From Candidatus Daviesbacteria bacterium (GTDB lineage Bacteria; Patescibacteriota; Microgenomatia; Daviesbacterales; UBA10151): a stretch of 61,531 bases of DNA. The stretch's first letter is position 1, and the number at the start of each line of letters is the position of its first letter. This document shows, piece by piece, positions 14,980-44,588 of the stretch. Location: assembly GCA_016198275.1 (NCBI GenBank), contig JACQIX010000019.1, positions 1 through 61,531 of the forward strand. The letters are read 5' to 3'. Position numbers and translations under genes: made by a program. The notes under the pieces are model-generated. The model searched no databases and had not been told where the DNA came from. It saw only the letters and a list, made by a program, of their open reading frames with translations.

Positions 14980-16548
14980 TTAGAAGCGAAAATCGATCTC
15001 TATTTTTCCATTACCCGTACGTATCTCTTTGATGATCATACGCAGAAAATGTTTTCTTTCTTCAAATTCTGCATTATCCCATAAGATATTGAAGTCTTCC
15101 AGGGATTTAGTGAATTTCTCCAGTTCCAGACGACGCTCGTTAATTTGTTGAAGCTTAATTTGATAATCATCGGCTACCACATGGTACTTGTTCTCTTCTT
15201 CCTCTAAGCGCTTTAAATTGCCTCCATAGACTTCTAACGAGTCGATCCCTGCTTCATAAGCTTCTTTGACCCGCTGTCTTCTTCTTTCAATGTCAGCTAG
15301 ATGTTTTGCAGCATATTTGTAGTCGTCTTCTAGGTTATCCGAGATAGCAATATTACGATCAAATATTAGTCTTTCTCTGGCGGTTGGATTATTAACCAGG
15401 TTTCGAATCTGGTTTAATACGAATTCTTCGAGTTTGGTGGCACTTATAACTCTTCTCTGACAGATACCGCTATATTTGTAACCCCCACAAAGGTACTCAT
15501 AGGTAGTTGTATTATTCCATCTAGGATTCTTTTTCTGCCTATTATGGTGACGAGTGAGATAAGTTACGCCAGATCCACAACGAATACATTTTGCGATTCC
15601 AGTTAACAAACCCCGACTCATCTTGGCCCTACCCTTTTGAGAATTACCTCTGACCTTTTTCTCTTTCTGAGCAAGAGCAAAAATAGCATCAGGAATAATT
15701 GGTTTATGCGTTCCAGGTTCGATAATACCTTTGTGTCCTCTTAACCTTCGTTGTTGATTCTTCTTGTATTCAGCGTGTCTCCAACCCCAAAGCACCTTGC
15801 CTGTATATGTTTGGTTTTGGAGCATATATTTAATCGCTTGTGCTCGCCAAAACTGACCTCGCGGGGGTTTTACTCCTTTTTCTGTCAGCGAGAACGCTAT
15901 GTTCAAAGCTCCTCTGCCCTGAATATATTCATCAAATATCCAGCGGACGATTTTTGCCTGCTCTTTATCTACTAGAACTTCCCTTTGTACTTTTCCTTTT
16001 TCATCTAGCCATCTGTGAATTTTGTAACCATATGGTACGTTGTTAGGGATCCTCCCCGATTTAGCCACAGCGACCTTACCCATCATCATTCTTCTGCGGA
16101 TTTTATTTCTTTCAATTTCAGACATCGTGTCACTATATCCTTCAACCATAATACCGAGGTCATCATCGGTGGGATCGTAGAGTTTTGGATCTTTTGGCTC
16201 TACGGGGGTATTAGTTGAGTAGGTCTGTATAAATAATTCCTTCAAAGCTTCCCTTGAGAGGGTGGCGCGTGCACGGTTTCTTGCAAAACGGTCAAAGTCA
16301 TAAACTAGCACCAAATCAAATATATGTTGCTCAGCGTCATCTAATAACTGTTGGAACGCTCTTCTTTCTTCAATGAGATGGCCACTTTCAGCATCAATGT
16401 AAGGTTCATGAACCAATTCCCAACCATGTTCTACGATGGTCTTTTTGCATTTGGCTATTTGATCAGGAAGAGAATATTTCCCTTCTGCTTGCTCTTTTGT
16501 GCTGACTCGGGCATATATTACCGCCCGGATATGAAATTTATTTTCCAT
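14980..16548 (-). CDS. Large serine recombinase (integrase)
   Basis: 522 aa. It has the resolvase catalytic domain AVIYARVSTKEQ (Ser nucleophile), a recombinase domain, a Cys-rich zinc ribbon (CIRCGSG...CGGYKYSGIC) and a long C-terminal coiled coil (EDDYKYAAKHLADIERRRQRVKEAYEAG...). Confidence 0.9.
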   Translation of the reverse strand: MENKFHIRAVIYARVSTKEQAEGKYSLPDQIAKCKKTIVEHGWELVHEPYIDAESGHLIEERRAFQQLLDDAEQHIFDLVLVYDFDRFARNRARATLSREALKELFIQTYSTNTPVEPKDPKLYDPTDDDLGIMVEGYSDTMSEIERNKIRRRMMMGKVAVAKSGRIPNNVPYGYKIHRWLDEKGKVQREVLVDKEQAKIVRWIFDEYIQGRGALNIAFSLTEKGVKPPRGQFWRAQAIKYMLQNQTYTGKVLWGWRHAEYKKNQQRRLRGHKGIIEPGTHKPIIPDAIFALAQKEKKVRGNSQKGRAKMSRGLLTGIAKCIRCGSGVTYLTRHHNRQKKNPRWNNTTTYEYLCGGYKYSGICQRRVISATKLEEFVLNQIRNLVNNPTARERLIFDRNIAISDNLEDDYKYAAKHLADIERRRQRVKEAYEAGIDSLEVYGGNLKRLEEEENKYHVVADDYQIKLQQINERRLELEKFTKSLEDFNILWDNAEFEERKHFLRMIIKEIRTGNGKIEIDFRF

Positions 16549-23404: not shown

Positions 23405-23442
23405 TTGAATTTGTTTTGATGATATTCTACACTATGTAGTAG
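23405..23442 (+). promoter_or_regulatory. Promoter plus palindromic operator upstream of the BlaI-like repressor gene
   Basis: -35 TTGAAT (23405-23410), a 17-nt spacer and -10 TACACT (23428-23433). The 16-mer CTACACTATGTAGTAG (23427-23442) contains the dyad CTACA-cta-TGTAG. It matches the 16-mer at 24901-24916 at 14 of 16 positions. Confidence 0.5.
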
Positions 23443-23444
23443 AT

Positions 23445-23810
23445 ATGAAGGCAAAAGCTTTGAGTGAACTTGAGCAGGAAGTAATGAATATTGTTTGGAA
23501 ATGCGGAGATTGCACTGTGCGTGACGTGCTTGAAAGAATAAATATGAAGAAAAAACTTGCGTATACGACCGTAATGACTATTATGGGGAGGCTTGTCGAT
23601 AAAGGAGTTTTGGCTAGAAAACCAGATGGCTTGAGTTACCTTTACTACCCAAGGATAAGCAAGAAAAATTTTGTAGCCAAGTCTGTTCACAATATTTTTA
23701 CTACTGCAGTAACTTCTCTGGGTCAGGAAGCAATCACTCATTTCGTAAAAGAAATTCAAAAGTTGAGTCCTAAAAAGAGGCGAGAACTTTTAAAAATACT
23801 GGATGAGTAA
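23445..23810 (+). CDS. BlaI/MecI/CopY-family winged-helix transcriptional repressor
   Basis: 121 aa. LSELEQEVMNIVWKCGDCTVRDVLERI...LAYTTVMTIMGRLVDKGVLAR is the family signature. It lacks the C-terminal CxCx4CxC of CopY and has an N-terminal CGDC instead. Confidence 0.85.
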   Translation: MKAKALSELEQEVMNIVWKCGDCTVRDVLERINMKKKLAYTTVMTIMGRLVDKGVLARKPDGLSYLYYPRISKKNFVAKSVHNIFTTAVTSLGQEAITHFVKEIQKLSPKKRRELLKILDE

Positions 23811-23816
23811 AATGAT

Positions 23817-24845
23817 ATGTCAAACAAAACAGGTATCAATCAAAGCTACATCATCCTAGTACTTTTAGGGTTGGTAGCTGGGGCAATTAGTATTGCTTTA
23901 CTGGCTAAGGTATATCCGTTATTTTCGGCAAAAGCACTTTACTTTTGCCAACAGTTTGTCGCAAATACTTTTTTTATGCTCCCTCACACTCTTCCTGGAG
24001 CTTTTGCCACTGCGGTGTGGGCTGTTTTATCGCTGGGTCTTATTTCCTTTCTCATCCAGTTGGCAAAAACATACGCGCTTCTTCGAAAGACTATTCCGAA
24101 GAAGATTCCCTTAACTCGTAAGCTTCAAGAGACAGTCAACTCGTTAGGTCTTGGAAACAGTACTCAATTAATTGAAGACAAAAATTTATACTCCTTTTGT
24201 ATCGGTTTTTTGAACCCCAAAATTATCATTACTTCAGGTCTTATTTCAGATTTAACACAGAAGGAGCTTGAAGCAGTGTTGCTTCACGAACAGATGCACT
24301 TAAAAAATAGGGACCCGCTGAAAATATTGATTGGGAAAACTGTATCTTCAACGTTTTTCTTTCTGCCAATATTCAGGGAACTTTATCGAAATATGGAAGC
24401 TACCAATGAACTGATAGCCGATTATTGGACCACTGAAATTCAAAAGGATACAAAATTTTTACGCAGTGCTCTGCGCAAAATTATTGCCCAGCCCCAAATT
24501 ACATTCGCAACGGTTCCCGCCATTTCCCATCCTGATCATATCGAAATCAGGGTGCGTCAACTCAAAAACACTGGAATTAAACATAAACTAACCCTTTCGT
24601 ATAGCAGTATTATCGGCAGCGCAATGTTTATCGTGGTTAGTTTGTTTGTGCTTCAAACCCCTGTTGACGCATTCCACACTGAAGACTCAAGTGAACCGTC
24701 TTATTTTGTATGTTCGGTTGATAATGTCTGTAGGCAAGAGTGTCATCACAATTCCAATATGTCTGTTCCCCGTCCTGATCATTTATTCACTCCCGTTAAT
24801 TCTTCTCCTACTTCTTCAAAATACGAAGCTCCATCATACAAATAA
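23817..24845 (+). CDS. BlaR1/MecR1-like M56 membrane zinc protease lacking a penicillin-binding sensor and ending in a short Cys/His-rich tail
   Basis: 342 aa. It has TM helices and HExxH in LLHEQMHLKNRDP. After a final TM helix, the ~60-aa tail contains CSVDNVCRQECHH. Confidence 0.8.
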   Translation: MSNKTGINQSYIILVLLGLVAGAISIALLAKVYPLFSAKALYFCQQFVANTFFMLPHTLPGAFATAVWAVLSLGLISFLIQLAKTYALLRKTIPKKIPLTRKLQETVNSLGLGNSTQLIEDKNLYSFCIGFLNPKIIITSGLISDLTQKELEAVLLHEQMHLKNRDPLKILIGKTVSSTFFFLPIFRELYRNMEATNELIADYWTTEIQKDTKFLRSALRKIIAQPQITFATVPAISHPDHIEIRVRQLKNTGIKHKLTLSYSSIIGSAMFIVVSLFVLQTPVDAFHTEDSSEPSYFVCSVDNVCRQECHHNSNMSVPRPDHLFTPVNSSPTSSKYEAPSYK

Positions 24846-24877
24846 GCAAAGCTTGTTACTTCGTAATAAAGATACTC

Positions 24878-24916
24878 TTGACAGAGAAGTGATCACCCTA
24901 CTACACTTAGTAGTAG
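24878..24916 (+). promoter_or_regulatory. Promoter plus palindromic operator of the thiol/CxxC operon
   Basis: -35 TTGACA (24878-24883), an 18-nt spacer and -10 TACACT (24902-24907). The 7-5-7 palindrome CTACTAC-ACTTA-GTAGTAG (24898-24916) overlaps the -10. The leader carries GGAGGTGA before the ATG at 24951. Confidence 0.5.
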
Positions 24917-24950: not shown

Positions 24951-25229
24951 ATGCCAGACAATACTTCTCTAAAATCAAGTGCGATACATCAGGTAGAAGA
25001 TGCACCAACTAATAATACCATGACGCTTCGTGTGCCCAAACCCAACATGCAGGTGGCGGTTTTGGGACTGGTAGCGTTTATTACTCTCTTTCAGACTGTT
25101 CAATTGGTGAGAATCGGTGCTAAAGCGGGATCAGCACCAGTCAAGGCCGCGCCAGCCGCTGCAACTACCAATACCGGCGGTTCCGGGAGCAATGCGGACG
25201 TTCCCCAATCAATGGTTGGCGGTTGTTAA
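24951..25229 (+). CDS. Small single-TM protein with an Ala/Pro/Thr/Gly-rich linker ending in ...MVGGC
   Basis: 92 aa with a strong SD (AAAGGAGGTGA, 5 nt before the ATG). The TM helix is VAVLGLVAFITLFQTVQLV, and the C-terminal residue is Cys. Confidence 0.5.
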   Translation: MPDNTSLKSSAIHQVEDAPTNNTMTLRVPKPNMQVAVLGLVAFITLFQTVQLVRIGAKAGSAPVKAAPAAATTNTGGSGSNADVPQSMVGGC

Positions 25230-25253
25230 ATAGTATTCGATTTAAAGCAAATT

Positions 25254-26471
25254 ATGCGTACTAAGACAAAACTCGTCTCTGACGAGAAGACTATTAATAT
25301 ATCAAAGACTAATGGCCAGGTAAAAGCAAAATCTCTCAATGTTCCTTGGCCAAAAGTTTTTCTGGTTGTGGCAGTGATTTCAACTGTTATCGGCGCCTTC
25401 GTTGCCACAAAAACGCTCGCACAAACAGAAAAGAAAATTGCTGAGGTAAAAGAGATGGCTCGACCTGCGAATGTGACTTTGACCAAGATTGCAGTTGAGA
25501 ACTGTGCAGACTGTTTCAATGTTGATGACGCGATAGCGACGTTTAAAAAGCAAAATGTTTCTGTCAGCGAAGAAAAAACTTTTCTTTCCACCTCAGCTGA
25601 AGCAAAGACTCTGATTACCGATTTGGGGATTAAACGGCTTCCTACTTATGTTGTTAAAGGAGAGATAACTAAGCAAAGTCTCGAAGGATTTGTTAAAGGA
25701 AACGGCGAGGTTAAAAATGACACCTTTATTTTTACAGGCGTTTCCCCTTTATTTGTAGATCCTCTGAGTAATAAAGAGATGGGTAAAGTTAGTGTGACAT
25801 ACCTCACCGATCCATCGTGTTCTTCTTGCATTAATCCAAAACTTACCATTGATGCGTATAAAAAAGCTGGGGTTAAAGTAACTGAGGAAAAAGAAGTATC
25901 TTGGAATTCTTTAGAGGGGCAAAAAATTATTAATCAGTATAAGATTGAAAAATTGCCAACTTTTGTACTCTCATCTGACGTTTCTTACTATTCGAGTATT
26001 AAGGATAACTGGCAAAAGATAGGGACTGTCGAACCAGACGGAGCATACGTGGCCAGACAGTTATTTCTTCCCTATCGTGATGTGACTAAGGGCCAGATTG
26101 TCGGACTGGTCGATGTTGTTTATCTTACCGATTCTAGTTGTACTGATTGCTACAAACCTCAGGAGGTTCATAAAAATATACTTACCCAAGGGTTTGGGGT
26201 AGGAATTCGGTCTGAACAAAGTGTCGATGCGAATTCACCGTATGGCAAGAGTCTTGTCTCAAAATACAAGATTACTCAAGTGCCAACCTTATTAATTTCA
26301 CCTGAAGTAGCGGAGTACTCAGGCATCAAACAAGTATGGCCTCAAGTAGGAACCACGGAACCAGATGGATGGTATGTGTTTCGCCAGGTCTCGCGTTTGG
26401 GCAGTGTTATTTATAAAGATTTTACAAGTAATCAAGTAGTTCGGCCGCAGCAACAACAAGCTGCACCGTAA
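25254..26471 (+). CDS. Membrane-anchored protein with three tandem thioredoxin/DsbA-like CxxC domains
   Basis: 405 aa with an N-terminal TM anchor. It has three ~110-aa repeats, each with a CxxC motif (CADC, CSSC, CTDC) and a downstream [KR]LPT / VPT cis-Pro-type motif (IKRLPTYV, IEKLPTFV, ITQVPTLL). Confidence 0.6.
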   Translation: MRTKTKLVSDEKTINISKTNGQVKAKSLNVPWPKVFLVVAVISTVIGAFVATKTLAQTEKKIAEVKEMARPANVTLTKIAVENCADCFNVDDAIATFKKQNVSVSEEKTFLSTSAEAKTLITDLGIKRLPTYVVKGEITKQSLEGFVKGNGEVKNDTFIFTGVSPLFVDPLSNKEMGKVSVTYLTDPSCSSCINPKLTIDAYKKAGVKVTEEKEVSWNSLEGQKIINQYKIEKLPTFVLSSDVSYYSSIKDNWQKIGTVEPDGAYVARQLFLPYRDVTKGQIVGLVDVVYLTDSSCTDCYKPQEVHKNILTQGFGVGIRSEQSVDANSPYGKSLVSKYKITQVPTLLISPEVAEYSGIKQVWPQVGTTEPDGWYVFRQVSRLGSVIYKDFTSNQVVRPQQQQAAP

Positions 26472-26483
26472 CAGTAATAAAAT

Positions 26484-27746
26484 ATGTTTAAAAAAACTAT
26501 CAGCGGAATAAAGACTGTCTTTGGCGACAGTTCATCATGGAAAGTTGCCGTAGTTGCAGGCGCAATTCTCTCTTATCTCTATTACTGGCTTCTTTCCCAA
26601 GTTACAACTATACCTCAATTTTTCTCCATGGCTCAAAATGGCGAATTTGGCCAGCATAGCATTCTTTATGCATTTCTTTATTGGACAACAACCTTAACTA
26701 CAATCGTTTTTTTTGGAATATCAGTGGCAGTCCTCGCATGGCTCTGGCGCCATTCAAAGCTACAACGGCTCGCCGTAGGTGGGTCAAATGCACTGGGTGT
26801 ATTTGCCGGAGCACTCGGATCATCCTGTCCGGTATGTGGAGCGTTCCTCCTAAATGCAATTGGAGTTACGGGCGGAGTCGCTACGATGCCCTTTCAAGGA
26901 TTGGAACTCAAGTTTGCTAGCTTGGGGCTCATGGTAGGGTCTACATTCTTTGCTTCCCGAAAAGTAAACGAGGCAGAAGAATGTGTGGAATGCGAGGATA
27001 TTTCTGAACACAAAGTTTCCGATAGTAAGTCATATAAGAAAGTTATTGTTCTTCCGCTCGAGAAAGTTTTTGTCTCAATCCTTATTGGCTTGTTTATTGT
27101 TAATCAAATTCTAATAAGCCAAGTGGCGGCGATCACTGGCTTGCCATCTGGAGGAATCGGGAGATTACTCGGTATTAGAACGGCATCAGCTATGACCATT
27201 ATTGCTCCCAAACTCAATCCAGATGGGAGAACCACTACTCTTGTTGAACAACCAACCATTACCGAGGTTTCTGCTAATCCTAACACCGGGGACGCCCTGG
27301 CTGATGCTAAGGTGGTCATGATTGCCACTGGTAAACCCTTTTATGCCCCCGATGACGTCTCTTTTGATGATCCGATTAACGCGCAAAAAAAATGGGGCGC
27401 ATTTGAGCAGTCAATTAAACTTTCGGGAGCCGAGGAAACACGGTATCAAAAACTCATAAGTACCATGGTTTGCAGTTACTGCTGTGGTGGTCCAACAAGT
27501 GTTACGCTCAATAAAAATTGCGGGTGCGCCCATGCTAAAGCAGTGCGGGGTTTTTACAAGTATATGATCCAAAATTACGGCGATCAGTATTCCGATGATC
27601 AACTTATCGGTGAATCTCACCGTTGGTATGCCATCTGGTATCCCAAGGGGATGCTGGAAGACTATTTATTAGCCACAGGTAAATCTGACGCACTTCCTCA
27701 TCAGACTCACGGAGGGGCGGGGGCTGATGGAAGGCATGGATTATGA
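26484..27746 (+). CDS. Cys-rich membrane protein: 4-TM module with an intramembrane CPVC plus a soluble domain carrying a CSYCCGG...CGCAH cluster (PCYCGC-like)
   Basis: 420 aa. GALGSSCPVCGAFLL lies in a TM segment, and the C-terminal domain has MVCSYCCGGPTSVTLNKNCGCAHA. Resemblance to the PCYCGC-motif family is from memory only. Confidence 0.5.
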   Translation: MFKKTISGIKTVFGDSSSWKVAVVAGAILSYLYYWLLSQVTTIPQFFSMAQNGEFGQHSILYAFLYWTTTLTTIVFFGISVAVLAWLWRHSKLQRLAVGGSNALGVFAGALGSSCPVCGAFLLNAIGVTGGVATMPFQGLELKFASLGLMVGSTFFASRKVNEAEECVECEDISEHKVSDSKSYKKVIVLPLEKVFVSILIGLFIVNQILISQVAAITGLPSGGIGRLLGIRTASAMTIIAPKLNPDGRTTTLVEQPTITEVSANPNTGDALADAKVVMIATGKPFYAPDDVSFDDPINAQKKWGAFEQSIKLSGAEETRYQKLISTMVCSYCCGGPTSVTLNKNCGCAHAKAVRGFYKYMIQNYGDQYSDDQLIGESHRWYAIWYPKGMLEDYLLATGKSDALPHQTHGGAGADGRHGL

Positions 27747-28180
27747 GCTTATTATCAGGTACGAAAACACGGATAGGCAGCCTTGTAAGTTCTTTGACGT
27801 CCGTACTTGGGATTGGCAGTAGCAGCACTTCAGTCGTGTGTCAAACAACCTGCTCAACATCTTCGAGTGTTTTGCCGTTTTTGGGTTTATCCTTAGCCGC
27901 TACGCCATTTGCCTTCATCCAAGACTATCAGCTATATATTTGGTGGTTGGCATTTTCTCTTTTTGTTTTGACTCTATGGGTTTCTTCAAAGAGAAATTTT
28001 TCTTCAAAATTTGAACAAGGACTTCTTTTTGTAAATGCAGGGCTTTTGGCAATAGGGTTGCCTTATCTGCGTAATTCGCAAGCGTTTGTTCTTATTGTCG
28101 GGTTGGGAATTGTTCTTTTAGTATTAGGGATATTTCAAGCGATTAGAGCTAAAAAGTTTGTTCTTGAATTTACGAAGTAA
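27743..28180 (+). CDS. Small polytopic membrane protein with a CxxxC pair
   Basis: 145 aa. The start overlaps the previous stop (ATGA). VVCQTTCSTSSSVLPFLGLS is followed by QDYQLYIWW, a pattern shared with 26484 and 43223. Confidence 0.45.
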   Translation: MSLLSGTKTRIGSLVSSLTSVLGIGSSSTSVVCQTTCSTSSSVLPFLGLSLAATPFAFIQDYQLYIWWLAFSLFVLTLWVSSKRNFSSKFEQGLLFVNAGLLAIGLPYLRNSQAFVLIVGLGIVLLVLGIFQAIRAKKFVLEFTK

Positions 28181-28181
28181 T

Positions 28182-28895
28182 ATGAAACAGAGTAAACGAT
28201 CAGAGTTAAAGATTTCAGCATGGGATTTTACAATTCCCGGCTTTGTTGTGCATCCGGCGTTCCACTTGCCTAAATATTCACTTGCCACATATCTGTTTAT
28301 TATTATCATCGCAGGATTTCTTATTAACCAAACTCTCCTCATGAAAGTTAATTCAAATGCCGTAAATCAGAAAAGTCAGGTGGAACTTACAGCTTCTCCC
28401 CCCCCATCGCTTTCAGCATTTGATCAAAATATCATAGCTAAATTGAAAAATGAAGGTAAACCTTATCCAATATTAGGTACAGCTCATAACCATGCCGATA
28501 TGAAAGTCTTTATGAATGGACAACCGTTTAATTTTGCAAAGCCAGAGTATTACATGAAGAGCAGGCTTCTTCATGTAGATAATAATCAAAACCTCGAGGA
28601 TGCAGGCTCGGTCCTGCACATGCATGCCAAAGATGTACCGATGTGGTTGTTCTTTGAAAGTCTGGGTATGAAGCTAGGGAAAGACAGTTTGACACTCGCC
28701 GATGGCCAGATTTTAAGGAACGAGAATGGTAATACCTTGAAGTTTTTCCTCAACGGGAAAAAGGTTGGCGAGTTGGAAAACTATGTTTTTCAGCCACTGG
28801 ATAAATTACTTATCAGTTTTGGTCCGGAGAATGATCCGGATATTCAAAAGCAAACAGATTCTGTACCAAATTTTGCAAAGGGTCACCAGAAGTAA
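28182..28895 (+). CDS. Membrane-anchored hypothetical protein with His-rich patches
   Basis: 237 aa from the ATG at 28182. The track TTG start at 28158 overlaps the upstream gene. It has a TM anchor, then GTAHNHADMKVF... and VLHMHAKD. Confidence 0.45.
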   Translation: MKQSKRSELKISAWDFTIPGFVVHPAFHLPKYSLATYLFIIIIAGFLINQTLLMKVNSNAVNQKSQVELTASPPPSLSAFDQNIIAKLKNEGKPYPILGTAHNHADMKVFMNGQPFNFAKPEYYMKSRLLHVDNNQNLEDAGSVLHMHAKDVPMWLFFESLGMKLGKDSLTLADGQILRNENGNTLKFFLNGKKVGELENYVFQPLDKLLISFGPENDPDIQKQTDSVPNFAKGHQK

Positions 28896-28896
28896 T

Positions 28897-29457
28897 ATGA
28901 GCAAACATAATGTTGTTATTGATGTTTCGACTGAACGGAAAGTCTTTATCGGCATTGGACTACTAACATTACTGATTTTAGTAGGAGGGGTATGGTTGAT
29001 GAGCGCTTCAGGTAAAAAACAACAAGAAAAGTTAAGTAAGCCGCTCATGGGAGAAGAAATTACCAGTCAAGGAGAGCCTCATGTTAAAAGAGGAGAATCG
29101 CATCCTTCATATAACTCCAATCCTCCGACCTCCGGTTGGCATTGGGGCGATGGCACTGCCGGACCAGGGATTAAAGACCAGCCGGTTCCCGATGAACTGG
29201 TACTCCATAGTATGGAGCATGGTGCAGCAGTCATCTGGTATAAATCTGACATGTCAAAGGAAGATGTAGAAAAGATTACCAAAGCATTTAATGATGCTTC
29301 CGGTAAGAAAATCATGGTACCGCGTCAGAATTTGGATACACCGATTGCGTTAACATCTTGGGGGCGTTTACTTAAGCTTCAATCAATTGATGAGGGAAAA
29401 ATTAAGGAGTTTATTTCAACCAATGAAGATCGGGGGCCTGAAAAGGCCGCAATATGA
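28897..29457 (+). CDS. Membrane-anchored DUF3105-like protein
   Basis: 186 aa from the ATG at 28897, 1 nt after the previous stop. NSNPPTSGWHW...LVLHSMEHGAAVIWY...LTSWGRLL fits the DUF3105 pattern as I recall it. Confidence 0.5.
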   Translation: MSKHNVVIDVSTERKVFIGIGLLTLLILVGGVWLMSASGKKQQEKLSKPLMGEEITSQGEPHVKRGESHPSYNSNPPTSGWHWGDGTAGPGIKDQPVPDELVLHSMEHGAAVIWYKSDMSKEDVEKITKAFNDASGKKIMVPRQNLDTPIALTSWGRLLKLQSIDEGKIKEFISTNEDRGPEKAAI

Positions 29458-29460
29458 TTT

Positions 29461-30138
29461 ATGAATCAAATATTAATGTCTTTTGCTTTTCTAGCTGGAC
29501 TGCAGGCATTTTTTGCGCCATGTAGCATTGCTTTAATTCCGGCGTACGTCGGATACTATGTCCGTGAACGTGCTGATAGTCACAGTAAGCTGCAAGAGTT
29601 ATTTTTTGGACTAAAAGCAGGAATTTTTTCAAGTCTGGGTCTTTTAAGCGTATATTCCGTTTTCGGAATACTCTTTGCACTTTTAGGGAAAGTTTTAGCT
29701 CCTTTCATGTCCTGGATTGAGCTTACAACCGGTGGTATTCTCTTGTTCTTGGGTGCATCGACGCTTTTGGGGTATGAGTTTGCTATCCGGCCTCCTGTTG
29801 TTATTCAGGTCAAGTCGGATGGAGTGAGAAGGTTTTATTTTTTTGGTCTAGCATATGCTTTGGGGGCGATAGGCTGTACCCTTCCTATTTTTCTGCTGGT
29901 TATATTTCAAGCACTTGCTCAAACAGGGTTTATGGGAGGTATAGCCACTTTTTTGATTTATAGCCTTGCCATGGTTCTTCTGATGCTTGCTTTTTCCCTT
30001 GTGGCTGCTGTTTCCAAAACAGCCATCTCTCGTTTTATGAATCGCTATATTAATGCTATCCAAAAGAGTGCGGGAATGCTGATTCTCTTCGCTGGAATAT
30101 ATTTAGTTTATCTAAGTTTAAAAATAATAACCATATGA
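29461..30138 (+). CDS. CcdA/DsbD-family transmembrane thiol:disulfide electron transporter
   Basis: 225 aa with 6 TM helices. The conserved Cys lies in FFAPCSIALIPAYVGY, with a second Cys in GAIGCTLPIF. Confidence 0.8.
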   Translation: MNQILMSFAFLAGLQAFFAPCSIALIPAYVGYYVRERADSHSKLQELFFGLKAGIFSSLGLLSVYSVFGILFALLGKVLAPFMSWIELTTGGILLFLGASTLLGYEFAIRPPVVIQVKSDGVRRFYFFGLAYALGAIGCTLPIFLLVIFQALAQTGFMGGIATFLIYSLAMVLLMLAFSLVAAVSKTAISRFMNRYINAIQKSAGMLILFAGIYLVYLSLKIITI

Positions 30139-30764
30139 AGCGACCTGTGATTGTTTGGCACGATCAGCCACTATTTAAAAAAACACCTTTTGCACTCGTT
30201 GTTGTAGTTGTTTTATTTGTCGGTTTTAATGTCTACCTTAATCTAAAGATTAAAAATACAAATGAAGAACTGAAGCAAATTGAGTCTGCAGCTTCCGCTC
30301 CGAGGAGCGTACCAGCAGAGTTTACCAAACGGATTGAACTTGGAGAAAAAGGCTGTCCTATGGCGAAAGCGGGTAATCCTAACGCTCCTGTAAAGTTTAA
30401 ACTCTTCGAATCTCCAACGTGTCCCTTTTGTATTGCTCAGGATAAGGTTATCTCTGAAATATTACCTCAGTATGGAGATCTGTTTTATGGAGAGTGGTAT
30501 CAGGTTACAGACTGCGTTAAAGAATCAGAGCAATATGGTATATCTGGTGTACCAACGTTTGTCTTTAGTGCCAAGGGTTCTGAAAAGGCACCAGCATACG
30601 GATTTTTAGATAAACAACAACTCATCGATTATATATGCCGAGTTTCAGGTGAATGCACGTCACCTAAAGAATCTCAGACAAAAACTTTATCACCTGTCCT
30701 TGCAACCTCCCAATTTGTATGTAAACCAAGAGAGACTTATACGTATGAACTAACTAAAAAGTGA
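30135..30764 (+). CDS. Membrane-anchored thioredoxin-fold (DsbA/TlpA-like) oxidoreductase
   Basis: 209 aa. It has a TM anchor, CxxC in ESPTCPFCIAQD, and a GVPTFVF cis-Pro loop. The start overlaps the CcdA stop (ATGA). Confidence 0.7.
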   Translation: MKRPVIVWHDQPLFKKTPFALVVVVVLFVGFNVYLNLKIKNTNEELKQIESAASAPRSVPAEFTKRIELGEKGCPMAKAGNPNAPVKFKLFESPTCPFCIAQDKVISEILPQYGDLFYGEWYQVTDCVKESEQYGISGVPTFVFSAKGSEKAPAYGFLDKQQLIDYICRVSGECTSPKESQTKTLSPVLATSQFVCKPRETYTYELTKK

Positions 30765-39284: not shown

Positions 39285-39379
39285 ACTACATAAAATTCTT
39301 CCCCCTCAATGGTAATTTCTGTTACTATAAAATGTAGTAGGGAAAATTATCAAAACATAAGCTTAAGGAGGTGATACTA

Positions 39380-39721
39380 ATGGCAAAACCAAATAACAAT
39401 AATTCAATAATTATGTGGGTAGTCGGTGCACTTATTGTTGGCGGAGTCTTGGGCTACCTGATTTCCCAATCAAGAACCCCATCAGCTGCGTATATGAGCG
39501 GAACTGCTTCCATGATGAAAGACAGTGGTTCTACAATGATGCAAATGGGCAAAATGATGATGCAAAGTGGCTCCATGATGCAACAGAAAGGTCAAAAATA
39601 TGGTGACCAGGAAATGATGCAACAGGGCAAGACCCTTGAAGAAAACGGCACCATGATGGAACAAAAAGGAACCACCTTGACGGAACGAGGCAACGGTATG
39701 ATGCAAATGATGGGTCAATAA
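39380..39721 (+). CDS. Membrane-anchored Met-rich protein (candidate Cu(I) binder)
   Basis: 113 aa from the ATG at 39380, with AAGGAGGTGA 6 nt upstream. A TM anchor is followed by repeated MMxxG/MMQ motifs (SMMKDSGSTMMQMGKMMMQSGSMMQQKG...GNGMMQMMGQ). Confidence 0.6.
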   Translation: MAKPNNNNSIIMWVVGALIVGGVLGYLISQSRTPSAAYMSGTASMMKDSGSTMMQMGKMMMQSGSMMQQKGQKYGDQEMMQQGKTLEENGTMMEQKGTTLTERGNGMMQMMGQ

Positions 39722-39725
39722 GTAT

Positions 39726-40421
39726 ATGGATTTTACCTATGCCTATTTAATAGCCAGTATCTTACTGCTGTTTGTTTGGCTTGTTTTGTATTGGCTAAAA
39801 CCACAGTCACGCAAGAAAATGCTTCTTATTAGTCTTCTTACTATGCCGCTTGGGTTGACTGAGCCGCTTTTTGTTCCTTCATATTGGTTTCCTTTTACTC
39901 TTTTTGATCTGGCCCGACAAACAAGATTTGACTTGGAAAGCCTTCTTTTTTCATTTGCCGTCGGAGGAATTACTGCCATTCTATACGAATCACTCTGGGG
40001 CAAATTGAGAAAACCCATAGGTGTTCACGAAATGCACCAAGGCAAACATCGACTTCATCGTTTAGCCTTGCTATCACCACTAATATCGTTCGGAGCTTTG
40101 TACTTCTTCACCCCCCTTAATCCTATTTACACGACTATTCTTGCCATGACCATTGGCGCAATTGCCACTTGGCTGTGCCGTCCCGATCTTGCTCGCGCCA
40201 TGCTTACAGGAAGTCTTTTATTTCTAATTCTTTATTTCGTAGTTTTTCTTATTGGATTTGTGTGGCTTTTCCCAGGATATGTTGAGGCTGTTTGGAACTT
40301 ACCTGCCATATCCGGTGTTTTACTTGCCGGAGTTCCTATCGAAGAACTACTGTTTGCAGCCTCTTTAGGCGCTATGTGGAGTAGCGTTTATGAACATTTT
40401 ACTTGGTACAAGTTCTCGTAA
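39726..40421 (+). CDS. Polytopic membrane protein (weak lycopene-cyclase-domain-like PxEE motif)
   Basis: 231 aa with about 6 TM helices. GVPIEELLFAASLG resembles the hPxEE motif of lycopene cyclase domain proteins. The call is tentative. Confidence 0.35.
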   Translation: MDFTYAYLIASILLLFVWLVLYWLKPQSRKKMLLISLLTMPLGLTEPLFVPSYWFPFTLFDLARQTRFDLESLLFSFAVGGITAILYESLWGKLRKPIGVHEMHQGKHRLHRLALLSPLISFGALYFFTPLNPIYTTILAMTIGAIATWLCRPDLARAMLTGSLLFLILYFVVFLIGFVWLFPGYVEAVWNLPAISGVLLAGVPIEELLFAASLGAMWSSVYEHFTWYKFS

Positions 40422-40423
40422 AT

Positions 40424-40461
40424 GAAATCCTAATAAAATCCTAATGAAGATTGAGTATCAT
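40424..40461 (+). promoter_or_regulatory. Promoter F with the best tandem 11-bp boxes (P-type ATPase operon)
   Basis: GAAATCCTAAT and AAAATCCTAAT (40424-40445), a 10-nt gap, -10 TATCAT (40456-40461), then 6 nt to the ATG at 40468. Confidence 0.55.
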
Positions 40462-40467
40462 AAAACA

Positions 40468-40983
40468 ATGCAGGAACCAAAAATCAGAACAATCTTACTT
40501 GTAAGTATTTTTGCGATCGCTTTTGCGTTTGTTGAGGCTTCAGTGGTTGTGTATCTACGACATCTATTGGGTGCCAGTTTTAACCCGCCGCAAGTCAGCC
40601 GGGAGCAAGTCTTATTATTAGTCCCAGGAATAGCTTTTCTTGACCCAAAAACAACTCTGGCCGTAATGAAGGATTCACAGATTTTGAAGGTTGAGCAATT
40701 TCGGGAGGCAGCGACCATAATTATGCTTGCCAGTGTTGCATTTTTAGCTGCCAAGGAAGCTCGCGAGAAATTAGCTTACTTTCTTCTCGCGTTTGGTGTT
40801 TGGGATATCTTTTATTACGTCTTTTTGCGGCTGGTTATTGGTTGGCCGAAGTCTCTTTTTGATTCAGATATTTTTTTTCTGTTACCAGTTCCATGGGTAG
40901 GACCGGTGATTACACCTTTAATTATCTCAAGCGTTTTAATCTTTGCAGCTTTATTGCTTTTAAAAAGAAAAGTTGAATTATGA
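40468..40983 (+). CDS. Polytopic membrane protein of unknown function, first gene of the ATPase operon
   Basis: 171 aa from the ATG at 40468. The track start at 40444 lies inside the predicted operator. It has about 5 TM helices and an ATGA overlap with the ATPase gene. Confidence 0.4.
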   Translation: MQEPKIRTILLVSIFAIAFAFVEASVVVYLRHLLGASFNPPQVSREQVLLLVPGIAFLDPKTTLAVMKDSQILKVEQFREAATIIMLASVAFLAAKEAREKLAYFLLAFGVWDIFYYVFLRLVIGWPKSLFDSDIFFLLPVPWVGPVITPLIISSVLIFAALLLLKRKVEL

Positions 40984-43226
40984 AAAATCAAGTCGCTGAA
41001 AAGAGTGTTTATACCTGTCCGATGCATCCAGAAGTGCAGATGGACAAGCCTGGCTCATGCCCAAAATGCGGGATGAAACTAGTGGAAAGCAAAATGAAGA
41101 TGAACCATGAGGGAATGGATCATGGTGCCATGGGTCACGGTGATCATGTAATGAAACCAGTGTCTCAAATGTCATGGTGGGAAAAATTCAAAATGAGCAT
41201 GACCATGGCTATGGGTATGGAGCATGGAGGCCTGGCAGGACGTGAGATGGCCAAACTTATGGAAGAGGATATTCGCAATAAGTTTTTTGTGGCGTTGATT
41301 CTGACCTTGCCGATTATCGCGTATTCACCTCTAGGAACAAACATCTTGGGGTTAAGACTCCCTGAGCCGATTCCTGCCAGCTGGACAATGTTTTTGTTGG
41401 CTACTCCTGTTTATTTTTACTCCGGCTGGATATTTCTCTACTCCACATACAAAGCATTAAAAGCAAAAACGCTTAACATGGCTGTGCTCATTGCTGTTGG
41501 TATCACCGCAGCATATGCATTTAGTGTGGTTCTAACGCTTCTCGGTAGCAAAGAATCTTTTTATGAAGCCGCTGCAATGCTAACCACATTCGTTCTCTTT
41601 GGTCATTGGATGGAGATGAAAAGTAGGCGTGGGACTACTGATGCGCTTCAAGCACTTTTTGACCTTGTCCCCCCTCAAGCGCGAGTAATACGAAATGGCA
41701 AAGAAGAGTTGATTCCTACAGCGCAAGTGCGATTGGGTGATGTTATTGTCTTAAAACCTGGAGATAAGGTGCCCGTTGACGGTGAAATAATAGAAGGTGA
41801 AACTGCCATTGATGAATCTTTAGTGACTGGTGAGTCTTTACCTGTTGTTAAAACAGTTGGTGATAAGGTGATCGGCGGCTCAATCAATACTTCGGGGTCA
41901 GTCCAATTTAAAGCAACTAAAATTGGTGAAGATACCGCTCTTGCTCAAATAGTCAAAATGGTTGAAACTGCCCAGAACTCCAAAGCTCCGGGGCAGAAAA
42001 TCGCTGATCGCTTTGCCAGATATTTAGTAGTTGTCGCTGTTGGCGGTGGACTTTTGACCTTCGCCGTCTGGTTTTTCATCCTCGGCCAGCCGATTCTCTT
42101 TGCACTTACTTTTGCCATCTCTACTGTCGTTATTGCCTGCCCTGATGCACTTGGACTGGCTACACCAACAGCTGTAGCAGTAGGTACTGGTTTGGGCGCA
42201 AAACATAATATTTTGATTAAAGATGCTCCTACTCTTGAGCAAGTTTCAAAAATACAATCTGTTGTTCTGGACAAAACAGGAACCCTCACTGAGGGTAAAC
42301 CTAAAATTACCGATGTGGTTGCTTCAAAAGGATTCACCGAGAACGATATTATTACACTTGATGCTGCAGCCGAAGCAAGATCTTCTCATCCTTTGAGTCT
42401 GGCGGTTTTAGAAGAAGCCAAACAAAGAAAACTTAGCATTCCTACTCAGGTGGAAAAATTTAAGAATCTAGCAGGTCATGGGGTTGAAGCAGTTGTTGAT
42501 GGTAAGCATGTGCTTGTCGGAACCGTAAAACTCATGAACGACTCGAGGGTTGATATTTCACCACTTCAAAAAGATATTGACAGACTACTCTCTGAAGGCA
42601 AAACCATCATGGTATTGGCTTTAGATAACAAAATTGCGGGCGTTGCAGCTGCTTCTGATCCGGTGAAGGAAAACGCTAAGCAAGCGATTACTCGTATGAA
42701 AGAGCTTGGGTTAGAGGTTGCGATGATTACCGGAGACAACAAAAAAACCGCTGAAGCCATTGGGAAACAGTTAAACATTGATAGAATCTTTTCCGAAGTA
42801 CTTCCGGGAGACAAAGCCTCCTACGTCAAGAAACTGCAACAGGAAGGCAAATTTACTGCCATGGTTGGTGATGGAGTCAATGATGCTCCGGCACTGGCTC
42901 AAGCTGATATCGGTATTGCCATTGGGGCCGGAACCGACGTAGCTATTGAAACAGCCAAAGTCGTACTGATGAAATCCGATCCTGCGGACGTTCTCAGAGC
43001 CATCAAGCTCTCTAAAGCGACTGTTCGTAAAATGAAACAGAATCTCTTCTGGGCTTCGATTTACAACCTATTGGCCATACCTGTTGCAGCCGGTGTTTTA
43101 TATCCCGCCTACAACATTTCATTACGTCCTGAAATCTCGGCACTTCTGATGAGCATTTCTTCCATTATTGTCGCAACTAATGCAGTCTTACTTAACCGAG
43201 CAGAAAAGGATCTTATAACCGTATGA
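40980..43226 (+). CDS. Copper-type P1B heavy-metal-translocating ATPase with an HMBD zinc-ribbon + His/Met-rich N-terminus and a non-canonical CPD transmembrane motif
   Basis: 748 aa. It has TGES (VTGESLPV), DKTGTLT, GDGVNDAP, TM7 YNLLAIP and TM8 MSISS. TM6 reads IACPDALGLATP (codons tgc cct gat). The N-terminus is YTCPMHPEVQMDKPGSCPKCGM followed by HEGMDHGAMGHGDHVM. There is no ferredoxin-like CxxC HMA domain. Confidence 0.92.
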   Translation: MKNQVAEKSVYTCPMHPEVQMDKPGSCPKCGMKLVESKMKMNHEGMDHGAMGHGDHVMKPVSQMSWWEKFKMSMTMAMGMEHGGLAGREMAKLMEEDIRNKFFVALILTLPIIAYSPLGTNILGLRLPEPIPASWTMFLLATPVYFYSGWIFLYSTYKALKAKTLNMAVLIAVGITAAYAFSVVLTLLGSKESFYEAAAMLTTFVLFGHWMEMKSRRGTTDALQALFDLVPPQARVIRNGKEELIPTAQVRLGDVIVLKPGDKVPVDGEIIEGETAIDESLVTGESLPVVKTVGDKVIGGSINTSGSVQFKATKIGEDTALAQIVKMVETAQNSKAPGQKIADRFARYLVVVAVGGGLLTFAVWFFILGQPILFALTFAISTVVIACPDALGLATPTAVAVGTGLGAKHNILIKDAPTLEQVSKIQSVVLDKTGTLTEGKPKITDVVASKGFTENDIITLDAAAEARSSHPLSLAVLEEAKQRKLSIPTQVEKFKNLAGHGVEAVVDGKHVLVGTVKLMNDSRVDISPLQKDIDRLLSEGKTIMVLALDNKIAGVAAASDPVKENAKQAITRMKELGLEVAMITGDNKKTAEAIGKQLNIDRIFSEVLPGDKASYVKKLQQEGKFTAMVGDGVNDAPALAQADIGIAIGAGTDVAIETAKVVLMKSDPADVLRAIKLSKATVRKMKQNLFWASIYNLLAIPVAAGVLYPAYNISLRPEISALLMSISSIIVATNAVLLNRAEKDLITV

Positions 43227-43648
43227 ACAGTGCAATAGCAAAAGGAACTCTGGCTTCACTGGTACTCCTTATAGTGTATTTCACCGTTGTCTCTTTGGTT
43301 TCCGGTTGGAGTTTTGCTCAGGATCAGTTTCGTCAATTCTGGTACTTCGTTGTTACTTTGGCAATAGGATTTGGTGTTCAGATAGGGCTGTATAGTTATC
43401 TTAAAAGTTCAATCAAAGGCGCGGTTAGTCCGAGAATTGTAACCACTACCGGAGCCACTTCCACTGCAGCGATGATTTCCTGCTGCGCCCATTACCTTGT
43501 GAACTTATTGCCCATCCTAGGCGCTGTTGGAATCATCACCGTTATCTCTCAGTACCAAGTGCAATTATTTTGGGTAGGTCTAGCGTTTAACTTTGCAGGA
43601 ATCGCTTATATGGCAAATAAAGTCTATAAATTCTCAAAACATATATGA
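43223..43648 (+). CDS. Small 4-TM membrane protein with an intramembrane Cys pair (SCCAHY)
   Basis: 141 aa with an ATGA overlap with the ATPase gene. MISCCAHYLVNLLPILG...SQYQVQLFWV is the same pattern as in 26484 and 27743. Confidence 0.45.
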   Translation: MNSAIAKGTLASLVLLIVYFTVVSLVSGWSFAQDQFRQFWYFVVTLAIGFGVQIGLYSYLKSSIKGAVSPRIVTTTGATSTAAMISCCAHYLVNLLPILGAVGIITVISQYQVQLFWVGLAFNFAGIAYMANKVYKFSKHI

Positions 43649-44106
43649 AAAACCAAAAGGTCATCATAATTGGTCTGGCAATTGTTATTATCGGAGCCGC
43701 TTTTTATTATGTGATCTTCAACCGTACAAACTCGTCAAGCACACAACCAGTTGGACCTGAACAATCAGAACAAAGTACTCTTTCAACCCAAACACTAACG
43801 GATGGAACTGTAACTTATAAAGTAACACCCAAAAATTTGACTTCTAGTGTCTCTACTTGGGATTTTGATATCAGCCTGGATACACATACCGGAAGCTTAG
43901 ATCAGGATCTAGTAGAAATCGTTCATCTGGTTGACGACAAAGGCAATGAATATAAAGCCACAACATGGGAGGGTGCCCCAGCTGGAGGTCATCATCGCGA
44001 AGGTATTCTTAGGTTCTCTCCAGTTACTCCACGCCCTGATTTCTTTGAATTGAAAATACAAACTACAAGTAGCACAGAAAATAATAGTTTGCGCTGGAAT
44101 ATATGA
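43645..44106 (+). CDS. Membrane-anchored extracytoplasmic protein of unknown function
   Basis: 153 aa with an ATGA overlap. A TM anchor is followed by a beta-rich-looking domain with a GGHHREG patch. Confidence 0.4.
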   Translation: MKNQKVIIIGLAIVIIGAAFYYVIFNRTNSSSTQPVGPEQSEQSTLSTQTLTDGTVTYKVTPKNLTSSVSTWDFDISLDTHTGSLDQDLVEIVHLVDDKGNEYKATTWEGAPAGGHHREGILRFSPVTPRPDFFELKIQTTSSTENNSLRWNI

Positions 44107-44588
44107 ACAAAACATTACGACATTATGAAGAAAGCGTGCTTATTCCCGCCTCTCCCCATGATTTGTTTAATTATGTAGATGACCATAAGAACTTTTCTTC
44201 CCATATGAGTAAGGCATCGCCGATGTTGGGTGGAGGAAAAATGGAAGTATCAGTTGACGAAGGAGATGGTCGGAAGGTTGGTTCACACATCCGGTTAAAG
44301 GGAACTGCCTTTGGAATCAAATTGTCTTTGGATGAAGTGGTCACACGTTATGAACCGCCATTATTAAAAACTTGGGAAACGGTTGGAATTCCAAAACTTT
44401 TGGTAATCGGTCAGTACCGCATGGGGGTTGAGATAAAACCGCAAAATACTAATTCCCTCCTTCGAGTTTTTATTGATTACGACTTACCAACTACAAATAC
44501 CTGGTTAGGACAGTTGTTTAGTGGTTTTTATGCAAAATGGTGCGTCCGGCAAATGCTTAAAGGGGCAAGTGTTCATTTTACTAAATAG
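44103..44588 (+). CDS. SRPBCC (START/polyketide-cyclase-like) superfamily protein
   Basis: 161 aa with an ATGA overlap. The N-terminus (ESVLIPASPHDLFNYVDDHKNFSSHM) and the length fit the SRPBCC fold. The call is tentative. Confidence 0.45.
   Translation: MNKTLRHYEESVLIPASPHDLFNYVDDHKNFSSHMSKASPMLGGGKMEVSVDEGDGRKVGSHIRLKGTAFGIKLSLDEVVTRYEPPLLKTWETVGIPKLLVIGQYRMGVEIKPQNTNSLLRVFIDYDLPTTNTWLGQLFSGFYAKWCVRQMLKGASVHFTK

Follow-up and report, generated by a model that had tools for sequence, protein, structure and literature searches.

A probable PetR/PetP-like, sensor-less BlaI/BlaR1-type proteolysis switch on a copper-resistance island of a Microgenomates bacterium

The window analyzed here is a 61,531-nucleotide (nt) stretch of contig JACQIX010000019.1 (assembly GCA_016198275.1) from a Candidatus Daviesbacteria bacterium, a Microgenomates member of the candidate phyla radiation (CPR). 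Two adjacent plus-strand genes in it, separated by 6 nt, encode a BlaI/MecI/CopY-family winged-helix repressor of 121 amino acids (aa) (23445 to 23810) and a 342-aa M48/M56 membrane zinc protease without a sensor domain (23817 to 24845). A predicted operator occurs three times in the window, and the three units behind it are the repressor/protease switch itself, an operon of thioredoxin, CcdA, and CxxC proteins, and an operon for a Met-rich protein and a P1B ATPase. A first-pass annotation, made by a model from the sequence, had read the gene pair as a proteolytic circuit rewired to sense metal or thiol stress outside the cell. We consider it probable that the pair is a sensor-less BlaI/BlaR1-type proteolysis switch on a mobile copper-resistance island, similar to PetR/PetP (PetRP) of Synechocystis sp. 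PCC 6803, in which the sensor-less M48/M56 protease PetP degrades PetR, a BlaI/CopY-like regulator, on copper addition (bioRxiv 10.1101/2020.07.31.226407; PNAS 2021).

The repressor matches the Pfam family Penicillinase_R (PF03965) over residues 6 to 121 of 121 (E value, 8e-31; 107.2 bits against a cutoff of 22.6) and aligns end to end with MecI (1SD6 and 1OKR), Staphylococcus aureus BlaI (1SD4), and Mycobacterium tuberculosis BlaI (2G9W), which bears out the BlaI/MecI/CopY-like identity proposed earlier. It is not a CopY, because its score on the CopY/TcrY equivalog model (NCBIfam TIGR02698) is 68.7 bits, under the cutoff of 121.95, and no cysteine lies beyond residue 23. Residues 24 to 121 are free of cysteine and the CopY-type C-terminal CxCxxxxCxC motif is absent, as the first-pass annotation had stated. 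The CGDC motif that it pointed to instead is indeed present at residues 20 to 23 but is missing from most orthologs; as a metal site it was ruled out on that ground, and the repressor is therefore unlikely to be a metal sensor. H99-F100 (nt 23739 to 23744) aligns with the scissile N101-F102 bond of MecI. The Phe at the P1′ position is kept in 37/37 aligned repressor orthologs, the P1 residue varies, and H99-F100 is probably the cleavage site of the repressor. The 788-kb assembly holds one BlaI-type gene and one M56 gene, and a search of it for a second BlaI/M56 pair that might own some of the operators found none.

The protease is matched by Peptidase_M48 (E value, 1.9e-13) and Peptidase_M56 (E value, 1.2e-11) and scores 44.8 bits on the M56 model (PF05569; cutoff, 31 bits), so that its initial description as an M56 protease with an HEQMH site stands. 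HEQMH occupies residues 157 to 161 (nt 24285 to 24299), and E198 and D202 are invariant among homologs. A profile of the protease family matches BlaR1 residues 102 to 348 (E value, 1.4e-11). In an AlphaFold2 model, the mean predicted local distance difference test score (pLDDT) is 74 and that of the core is ∼90; a Foldseek search with this model placed the BlaR1 cryo-electron microscopy structures 8EXT, 8EXQ, and 8EXP on top, followed by ZMPSTE24/Ste24 and BepA. The closest solved relative of the protease, by both sequence and fold, is S. aureus BlaR1.

Hydropathy places transmembrane helices at residues 10 to 30, 62 to 84, and 262 to 280 of the protease. The flanks at residues 85 to 105 and 240 to 261 are strongly positive and the flank at residues 281 to 300 is acidic; flank charges and hydropathy together therefore put the protease domain inside the cell and a 62-residue C-terminal tail (residues 281 to 342; 24657 to 24842, plus strand) outside. 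Residues 35 to 55 are too polar to form an independent helix, so that residues 31 to 61 probably form an outer loop where BlaR1 has its loop EL1. EL1 of BlaR1 immediately precedes helix alpha3, the lead into the protease domain, and the signal runs from EL1 through alpha3 to the protease (PMC9834060). The protein stops 62 residues beyond its last transmembrane helix and lacks a transpeptidase-fold penicillin-binding sensor, and its tail carries the motif C299-x5-C305-x3-C309-H310-H311 (nt 24711 to 24749), in agreement with the tail of about 60 residues described at first. A canonical beta-lactam-sensing BlaI/BlaR1 system, for which family-level homology is the argument, is refuted by this architecture. 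The BlaR1 models of NCBIfam (NF000326 and NF033108) reach 29 and 26 bits on the protease against cutoffs of 400 and 1200, and no beta-lactamase or penicillin-binding-protein gene lies behind any of the three operators; the chance that this is such a system is next to nil. One homolog from a same-family genome (G107:C1:21379-22368) has an in-frame TGA and may be a pseudogene or reflect a sequencing error.

Comparison with related loci gives, as the predicted operator, the 17-bp palindrome TACTACA-N3-TGTAGTA (equivalently, TACTAC-N5-GTAGTA). Operator 1 (TTCTACACTATGTAGTA; 23425 to 23441) has one mismatch to this consensus and contains the −10 element TACACT (23428 to 23433) of the plus-strand promoter of the repressor/protease operon, whose −35 element TTGAAT (23405 to 23410) lies 17 nt upstream. 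Orthologs have TTGACT-17-TACAAT at the same position. Operator 1 ends 3 nt before the ATG, which predicts a repressor transcript with little or no leader and autoregulation of the repressor/protease operon. Operator 2 (CTACTACACTTAGTAGTAG; 24898 to 24916) is a perfect 7-5-7 inverted repeat whose 17-mer at 24899 to 24915 differs from the consensus at one position. It contains the −10 element of the plus-strand promoter of the thiol-oxidoreductase operon (24878 to 24907), made up of TTGACA (24878), 18 nt, and TACACT (24907) and conserved in orthologous intergenic regions. Operator 3 (TACTATAAAATGTAGTA; 39323 to 39339) has one mismatch and overlaps a likely −10 element (TACTAT/TATAAA). The window holds 3 sites at ≤2 mismatches, against 0.15 expected, and the whole assembly holds exactly 3 at ≤1 mismatch, against ∼0.65 in shuffled sequence; all three assembly sites are on the island and in promoter position.

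The first-pass annotation had reported two palindromic 16-mers, at 23427 to 23442 and 24901 to 24916, each over a TACACT −10 element with a properly spaced −35 element. Their identity at 14 of 16 positions is confirmed, but as drawn they are only approximately palindromic, being the inner part of the longer 17-bp palindrome. The TTGACA-18 promoter was recovered by our consensus scan; the TTGAAT-17 promoter is present but scores 8/12, under the threshold of the scan. Both predicted operators are thus present in the sequence, and the assignment of one to the switch's own promoter and the other to the downstream Cys-rich operon is supported by the recurrence of these positions in 16 related genomes. 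The third predicted operator had been missed.

We compared the window with 16 loci from Roizmanbacteria, Levybacteria, Daviesbacteria, WWE3, and other metagenome-assembled genomes (MAGs). These 17 genomes together hold 46 operator sites, with near-invariant half-sites, variable central bases, and no compensatory changes between half-sites. The sites fall into three classes: 0 to 19 nt before the ATG of the repressor gene; ∼25 nt before gene 1 of the thiol operon, in 15/16 related loci; and before homologs of the gene at 43223, in at least 10 related loci. In the window, the 43223 gene lies inside the operon behind operator 3, and elsewhere it has its own operator; its membership in the regulon is thus kept though gene order is not. 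A perfect TACTACACATTGTAGTA precedes 43223-gene homologs in six loci (L006:11877, L009:11858, L010:4429, L013:7582, L015:12480, and L016:14331), with the extended −10 element TGCTAaACT 7 nt further downstream, so that the operator is in the −35/spacer region and clear of the −10 element. PetR sites near the −35 element activate, and the sign of regulation at the TACTACACATTGTAGTA promoters may therefore differ from repression.

Operator 2 was also flagged by a terminator scan, the 7-bp stem at 24898 to 24916 being followed by TTTATTTTAT, and the palindromes could accordingly be taken not as operators but as the intrinsic terminator of the protease gene (operator 2) and chance or repeat elements (the others). 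The stem, however, has only 3 G-C pairs, and operator 2 overlaps the conserved TTGACA-18-TACACT promoter. The same 17-mer is found upstream of start codons at operators 1 and 3, where nothing needs terminating. The T-run is absent at most orthologous sites, while the half-sites are kept as sequence and not as pairing; on these grounds operator 2 was rejected as a terminator, and we hold it very improbable that the palindromes are anything other than operators.

Eight or nine tightly packed plus-strand genes, delimited from open reading frames and Pfam matches, follow operator 2 (24951 to 30764) and form the thiol-oxidoreductase operon. The first of them is preceded by a strong AGGAGG. The first products are a 92-aa tethered peptide ending in Cys, a triple thioredoxin-like protein, and a 420-aa membrane protein with CPVC and CSYCC motifs; these are followed by a 145-aa CxxxC membrane protein, a 245-aa protein, a DUF3105 protein, a CcdA/DsbD_2-like protein, and a thioredoxin-like protein. 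The plus-strand operon behind operator 3 (39380 to 44588), delimited from open reading frames and domain matches, begins with a Met-rich small protein (likely ATG at 39380), a lycopene-cyclase-domain protein, and a 179-aa membrane protein and continues with a P1B ATPase (40980 to 43226), a paired-Cys membrane protein (43223), a 153-aa protein, and an SRPBCC protein. The ATPase has an HMBD zinc ribbon (CPMHPEV...CPKCGM) and a His/Met-rich N terminus.

Several further features of the operator 3 operon were observed. The product of its first gene (39380 to 39721) is membrane anchored, consists mostly of Met/Gln/Gly repeats (MMQMGKMMMQSGSMMQQ...), has no Pfam match, and looks like a Met-rich Cu(I)-binding protein. 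The position corresponding to transmembrane helix 4 of the P1B ATPase reads ACPDALG, that is, CPD, with YN and MSISS downstream; the usual motif in this helix of P1B ATPases is CPC or CPH. Directly upstream of operator 3 (39292 to 39339) is a CopR-box-like element (aaaattctt...cctcaatg) resembling the boxes before the multicopper oxidase and response-regulator genes (30822 and 33580). The operator 3 promoter may thus be under dual control, by response-regulator activation and BlaI-type repression.

Approximately 100 protease homologs of the same length were found, nearly all of them in CPR lineages. The repressor-protease pair is present in all 16 compared CPR loci, and the order repressor, protease, 92-aa peptide, triple-thioredoxin protein, and 420-aa membrane protein is kept in 15 of them; locus L011 keeps the pair and the operator but none of downstream genes 1 to 3. 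In a broader set of related loci, the repressor gene lies upstream of the protease gene in 76/80. The protease family occurs in 33/301 genomes of the class (11%) and in 3 of ∼19 genomes of the window's own family. Before the switch, between 14980 and 23352, the window carries a serine recombinase gene (14980 to 16548, minus strand), a gene for a 936-aa primase-like protein, and a terminase-like gene, the last without a Pfam match at an E value of ≤0.01. The patchy occurrence and the recombinase, primase-like, and terminase-like neighbors mark the switch as accessory, mobile cargo.

Two side observations concern the distribution of the pair. A repressor gene and a gene for a short M56-like protease are also found in MAGs of DPANN-type archaea (Woesearchaeota, Micrarchaeota, and Nanoarchaeia; L067, L068, L061, L065, L075, and L076), and the pair in L067 adjoins genes homologous to those for the triple-thioredoxin protein and the paired-Cys membrane protein, which suggests that the module has been transferred between DPANN archaea and CPR bacteria. 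Some loci (L002, L005, L007, and L011 to L013, among others) come from binned Third Party Annotation assemblies titled "uncultured Gammaproteobacteria bacterium," yet have clear CPR gene content and 42 to 62% identical proteins, and their labels look wrong.

Conservation of the candidate sensor residues was counted over 97 near-full-length protease homologs. The three tail cysteines singled out by the first-pass annotation are conserved (C299, 89%; C305, 85%; C309, 91%) and so survive the refutation test that the annotation had set, but the two histidines are not (H310, 41%; H311, 38%), and His-His ligands as a family-wide feature were ruled out at a conservation of only ∼40%. The annotation had also passed over a better conserved outside cysteine, C44 (98%; nt 23946 to 23948), which lies in the outer loop of residues 31 to 61; M54, in the same loop, is kept in only 2% of homologs. 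The losses of cysteines are nearly all gaps or truncations, with one substitution per position, and homologs with one tail Cys retain the equivalents of C44 and C309. In wider homologs from other phyla (26 to 36% identity), the equivalent of C44 is present in 57/61, a count to which alignment contributes, as aligners favor lining up rare cysteines. Among these wider homologs, C-x4-6-C-x3-C tails recur in Saccharibacteria and other CPR groups, and about ten CPR lineages keep either this tail or one or two tail cysteines. Many relatives in Chloroflexota and Firmicutes have very short tails with one or two cysteines, often near the C terminus, and a few (L031, L046, L053, and L055) have no tail cysteine.

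A profile search of the tail for a known domain, a check suggested by the first-pass annotation, gave no Pfam match at an E value of ≤10. With the tail as the query, phmmer returned two family members and one weak match to a repeat protein from among 1.84 billion representatives. The extreme C terminus of the tail, KY-x-APSYK (residues 335 to 342; nt 24819 to 24842), recurs among homologs as KYEAPSYK, KYAAPSYK, KYELPSYK, and YGLPLK; the linker before it is variable, and Y336 is 68% conserved.

That the outside cysteines are the sensing residues is a serious possibility, but one that we advance tentatively. Several observations weigh against it or against copper sensing by the switch. About 10 to 15% of homologs lack part of the Cys cluster, and the AlphaFold2 pLDDT falls below 50 at residues 39 to 57 and 284 to 342, exactly the two Cys-bearing segments. 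Extracytoplasmic copper sites usually rely on Met and His, not Cys, and the ligands proposed for PetP are likewise two conserved outer-loop Met residues. The island carries a separate CopRS-type two-component system, with CopR-like boxes, that already covers copper sensing; linkage of operator 3 to a P1B ATPase was seen in none of the other CPR loci; and the window sequence was found only in groundwater metagenomes of DNA. The tail also resembles the disulfide-bearing, two-Cys Ig-like repeat (FxCSLDGxxFxxC) of one large surface protein, a likeness that fits purely structural disulfides.

The switch could then be the same, with the cysteines forming the disulfides of a small extracellular knot and the signal being a partner (e.g., the 92-aa peptide with its terminal Cys, which is co-conserved), a protein misfolded in the envelope, or a cue from lipid or cell wall. 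Besides the Ig-like repeat, CenR and most M56 proteins, which have short, disordered C termini and unidentified signals (PMC13492132), speak for this explanation, and with gene order kept through gene 3 in nearly all of the CPR loci, a downstream product could be the ligand. A single Cys persists, however, in tails of few residues, where an intradomain disulfide knot is impossible. Moreover, C44, the best conserved of the outside cysteines, lies in another segment, and in several phyla the genes behind the operator have copper and thiol functions. We regard purely structural cysteines as unlikely.

Sensing might alternatively take place in the cytoplasm, by the repressor or by C128 of the protease, with the protease merely degrading metal-loaded or oxidized repressor and the tail uninvolved. 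C128, beside the active-site sheet, is conserved in 97/97 members (100%) of the close family; copper binding by PetR was considered by the authors of the PetRP work (bioRxiv 10.1101/2020.07.31.226407); and the repressor here does have its CGDC. Most orthologs lack this motif, however, and the C-terminal motif of CopY is absent. Thr, Val, or Ser stands in place of C128 in 24/61 wider homologs, against the retention of the C44 equivalent in nearly all of them, and the strong conservation of the outside cysteines would be left unexplained. Cytoplasmic sensing is accordingly judged quite improbable.

With regard to the signal, we favor copper or thiol stress. Where distant relatives carry this operator, the operon behind it encodes DsbA-like proteins, DsbD_2-cupredoxin fusions, and HMA (CopZ-like) proteins, and a P1B ATPase or multicopper oxidase gene lies within 7 kb in 15/80 related loci. 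From this copper/thiol gene context and the PetRP precedent, envelope copper, acting directly or via thiol oxidation, emerges as the most likely signal. The gene setting fits the metal or thiol-stress signal suggested in the first-pass annotation.

We propose the following mechanism. In the uninduced state, a repressor dimer would hold the three 17-bp palindromes that overlap the −10 elements of three promoters and so repress its own leaderless operon, the operon of envelope thiol-disulfide oxidoreductases, and the Met-rich/P1B-ATPase/paired-Cys operon. The gluzincin site of the protease, HEQMH...E198xxxD202, would face the cytoplasm, and two segments would lie outside the cell, namely, the C44 loop ahead of the helix into the protease domain and the 62-residue tail with C299, C305, and C309. 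Copper, or copper-catalyzed oxidation of envelope thiols, would alter these cysteines by forming a Cu-thiolate or a disulfide, and the change would be relayed via the membrane helices, as by loop EL1 and helix alpha3 in BlaR1. The activated protease would then cleave the repressor, probably between H99 and F100, and the three operons would be derepressed. The induced reductive proteins could afterwards reset the sensor.

For nearly all sensor-less BlaR-like M56 proteases, the signal and the sensing residues have not yet been identified, and almost no transcriptional regulation has so far been worked out in uncultivated CPR bacteria. Our search of the literature on BlaI/BlaR in CPR or Patescibacteria turned up no relevant work, the hits being to the surname "Blainey." It is conceivable, if rather unlikely, that the outer-loop and C-terminal cysteines constitute a general, undescribed thiol-sensing module of sensor-less BlaR-like proteases in CPR bacteria, Chloroflexota, Firmicutes, and others, in which a Cu(I)-thiolate or disulfide switch outside the membrane would trigger proteolysis of the repressor, with the induced thioredoxin/CcdA pathway resetting the switch. 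Such a module would explain signal perception by a large part of the majority M56 class and would provide the first defined repressor regulon for CPR bacteria. The repressor/protease pair would also be a second regulatory layer, beside the CopRS-type system, on copper islands moving among groundwater CPR bacteria. Because the family has four outside cysteines that are conserved, a precise operator, and a small regulon that is likewise conserved, a handful of point mutants and a reporter in a laboratory host could put sensing to the test.

Among known systems, the best sequence and fold matches are BlaI/BlaR1 and MecI/MecR1 of S. aureus and Bacillus licheniformis (8EXP to 8EXT, 1SD6, and 1OKR). 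The likeness extends to the cytoplasm-facing HExxH...ExxxD site, the adjacent repressor gene, the Phe at the scissile N101-F102 position, and the TACA/TGTA-type palindromic operators, predicted here, that lie over promoters and would provide for autoregulation. Unlike BlaR1 and MecR1, the protease described here has no extracellular transpeptidase sensor and, by hydropathy, one fewer N-terminal transmembrane helix. Unlike in BlaI and MecI, the operator core spacer is 3 nt rather than 2 nt, the P1 residue is His rather than Asn, and the regulon contains no beta-lactamase or PBP2a. With respect to the output genes only, ScsABCD-type copper tolerance is similar in combining envelope thioredoxin-like proteins with a DsbD/CcdA-type electron conduit under copper induction; it differs in having other regulators, other proteins, and a Gram-negative periplasm.

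CopY, CopR, and TcrY of Firmicutes share the winged-helix family, an ACA/TGT-centered palindrome, and control, predicted here, of a copper-ATPase operon. The CopY operator, RNYKACANNTGTMRNY, has a 2-nt core spacer (PMC7253601). CopY senses Cu(I) itself via its C-terminal CxC...CxC and has no protease partner, whereas the repressor here lacks this motif. Noncanonical BlaIR systems, namely, CenIR of Clostridioides difficile (PMC13492132), BlaI/BlaR of M. tuberculosis (Rv1846c/Rv1845c; 2G9W), and BlaI_0696 of Clostridium thermocellum (PMC8457756), resemble the switch in an M56 protease with a short, unannotated, apparently disordered C terminus and in small regulons that include their own operon; C. 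thermocellum BlaI_0696 also has hexamer-N5-hexamer operators (PMC8457756). Their signals are unidentified or unrelated (cell envelope and energy metabolism), and no conserved Cys cluster or copper/thiol regulon has been described for any of them. For M. tuberculosis BlaI, a motif TAC(G/T)AC-N5-GT(A/C)GTA is taken as background only and carries no weight as evidence. About 96% of M56 proteins have a BlaI-like gene within 5 genes, only ∼6% carry a sensor domain, and short, unannotated C termini are the commonest architecture (PMC13492132). The absence of the transpeptidase sensor is thus no oddity, and the notion that a sensor domain had been replaced and the circuit rewired is overstated.

Sensor-less proteases are therefore already known as the family majority, and a copper-responsive sensor-less pair is known in PetRP. 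Within the sensor-less BlaIR class, our comparison indicates that the switch is closest in logic to PetRP, a likeness set by the published description. Both have a BlaI/CopY-like regulator without the CopY Cys motif, a cotranscribed downstream M48/M56 protease without a penicillin-binding domain, and a copper context, and in both the half-sites are 5 nt apart (GAC-N5-GTC for PetR and TAC-N5-GTA here). PetP is predicted to have three transmembrane helices before the protease domain, against two here by hydropathy. PetR controls the choice between plastocyanin and cytochrome c6 and can activate, whereas the putative target operons here serve copper and thiol defense and the positions of the sites indicate repression. 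Finally, the protease of the window, unlike PetP, combines a conserved outer-loop Cys with a C-x5-C-x3-C tail.

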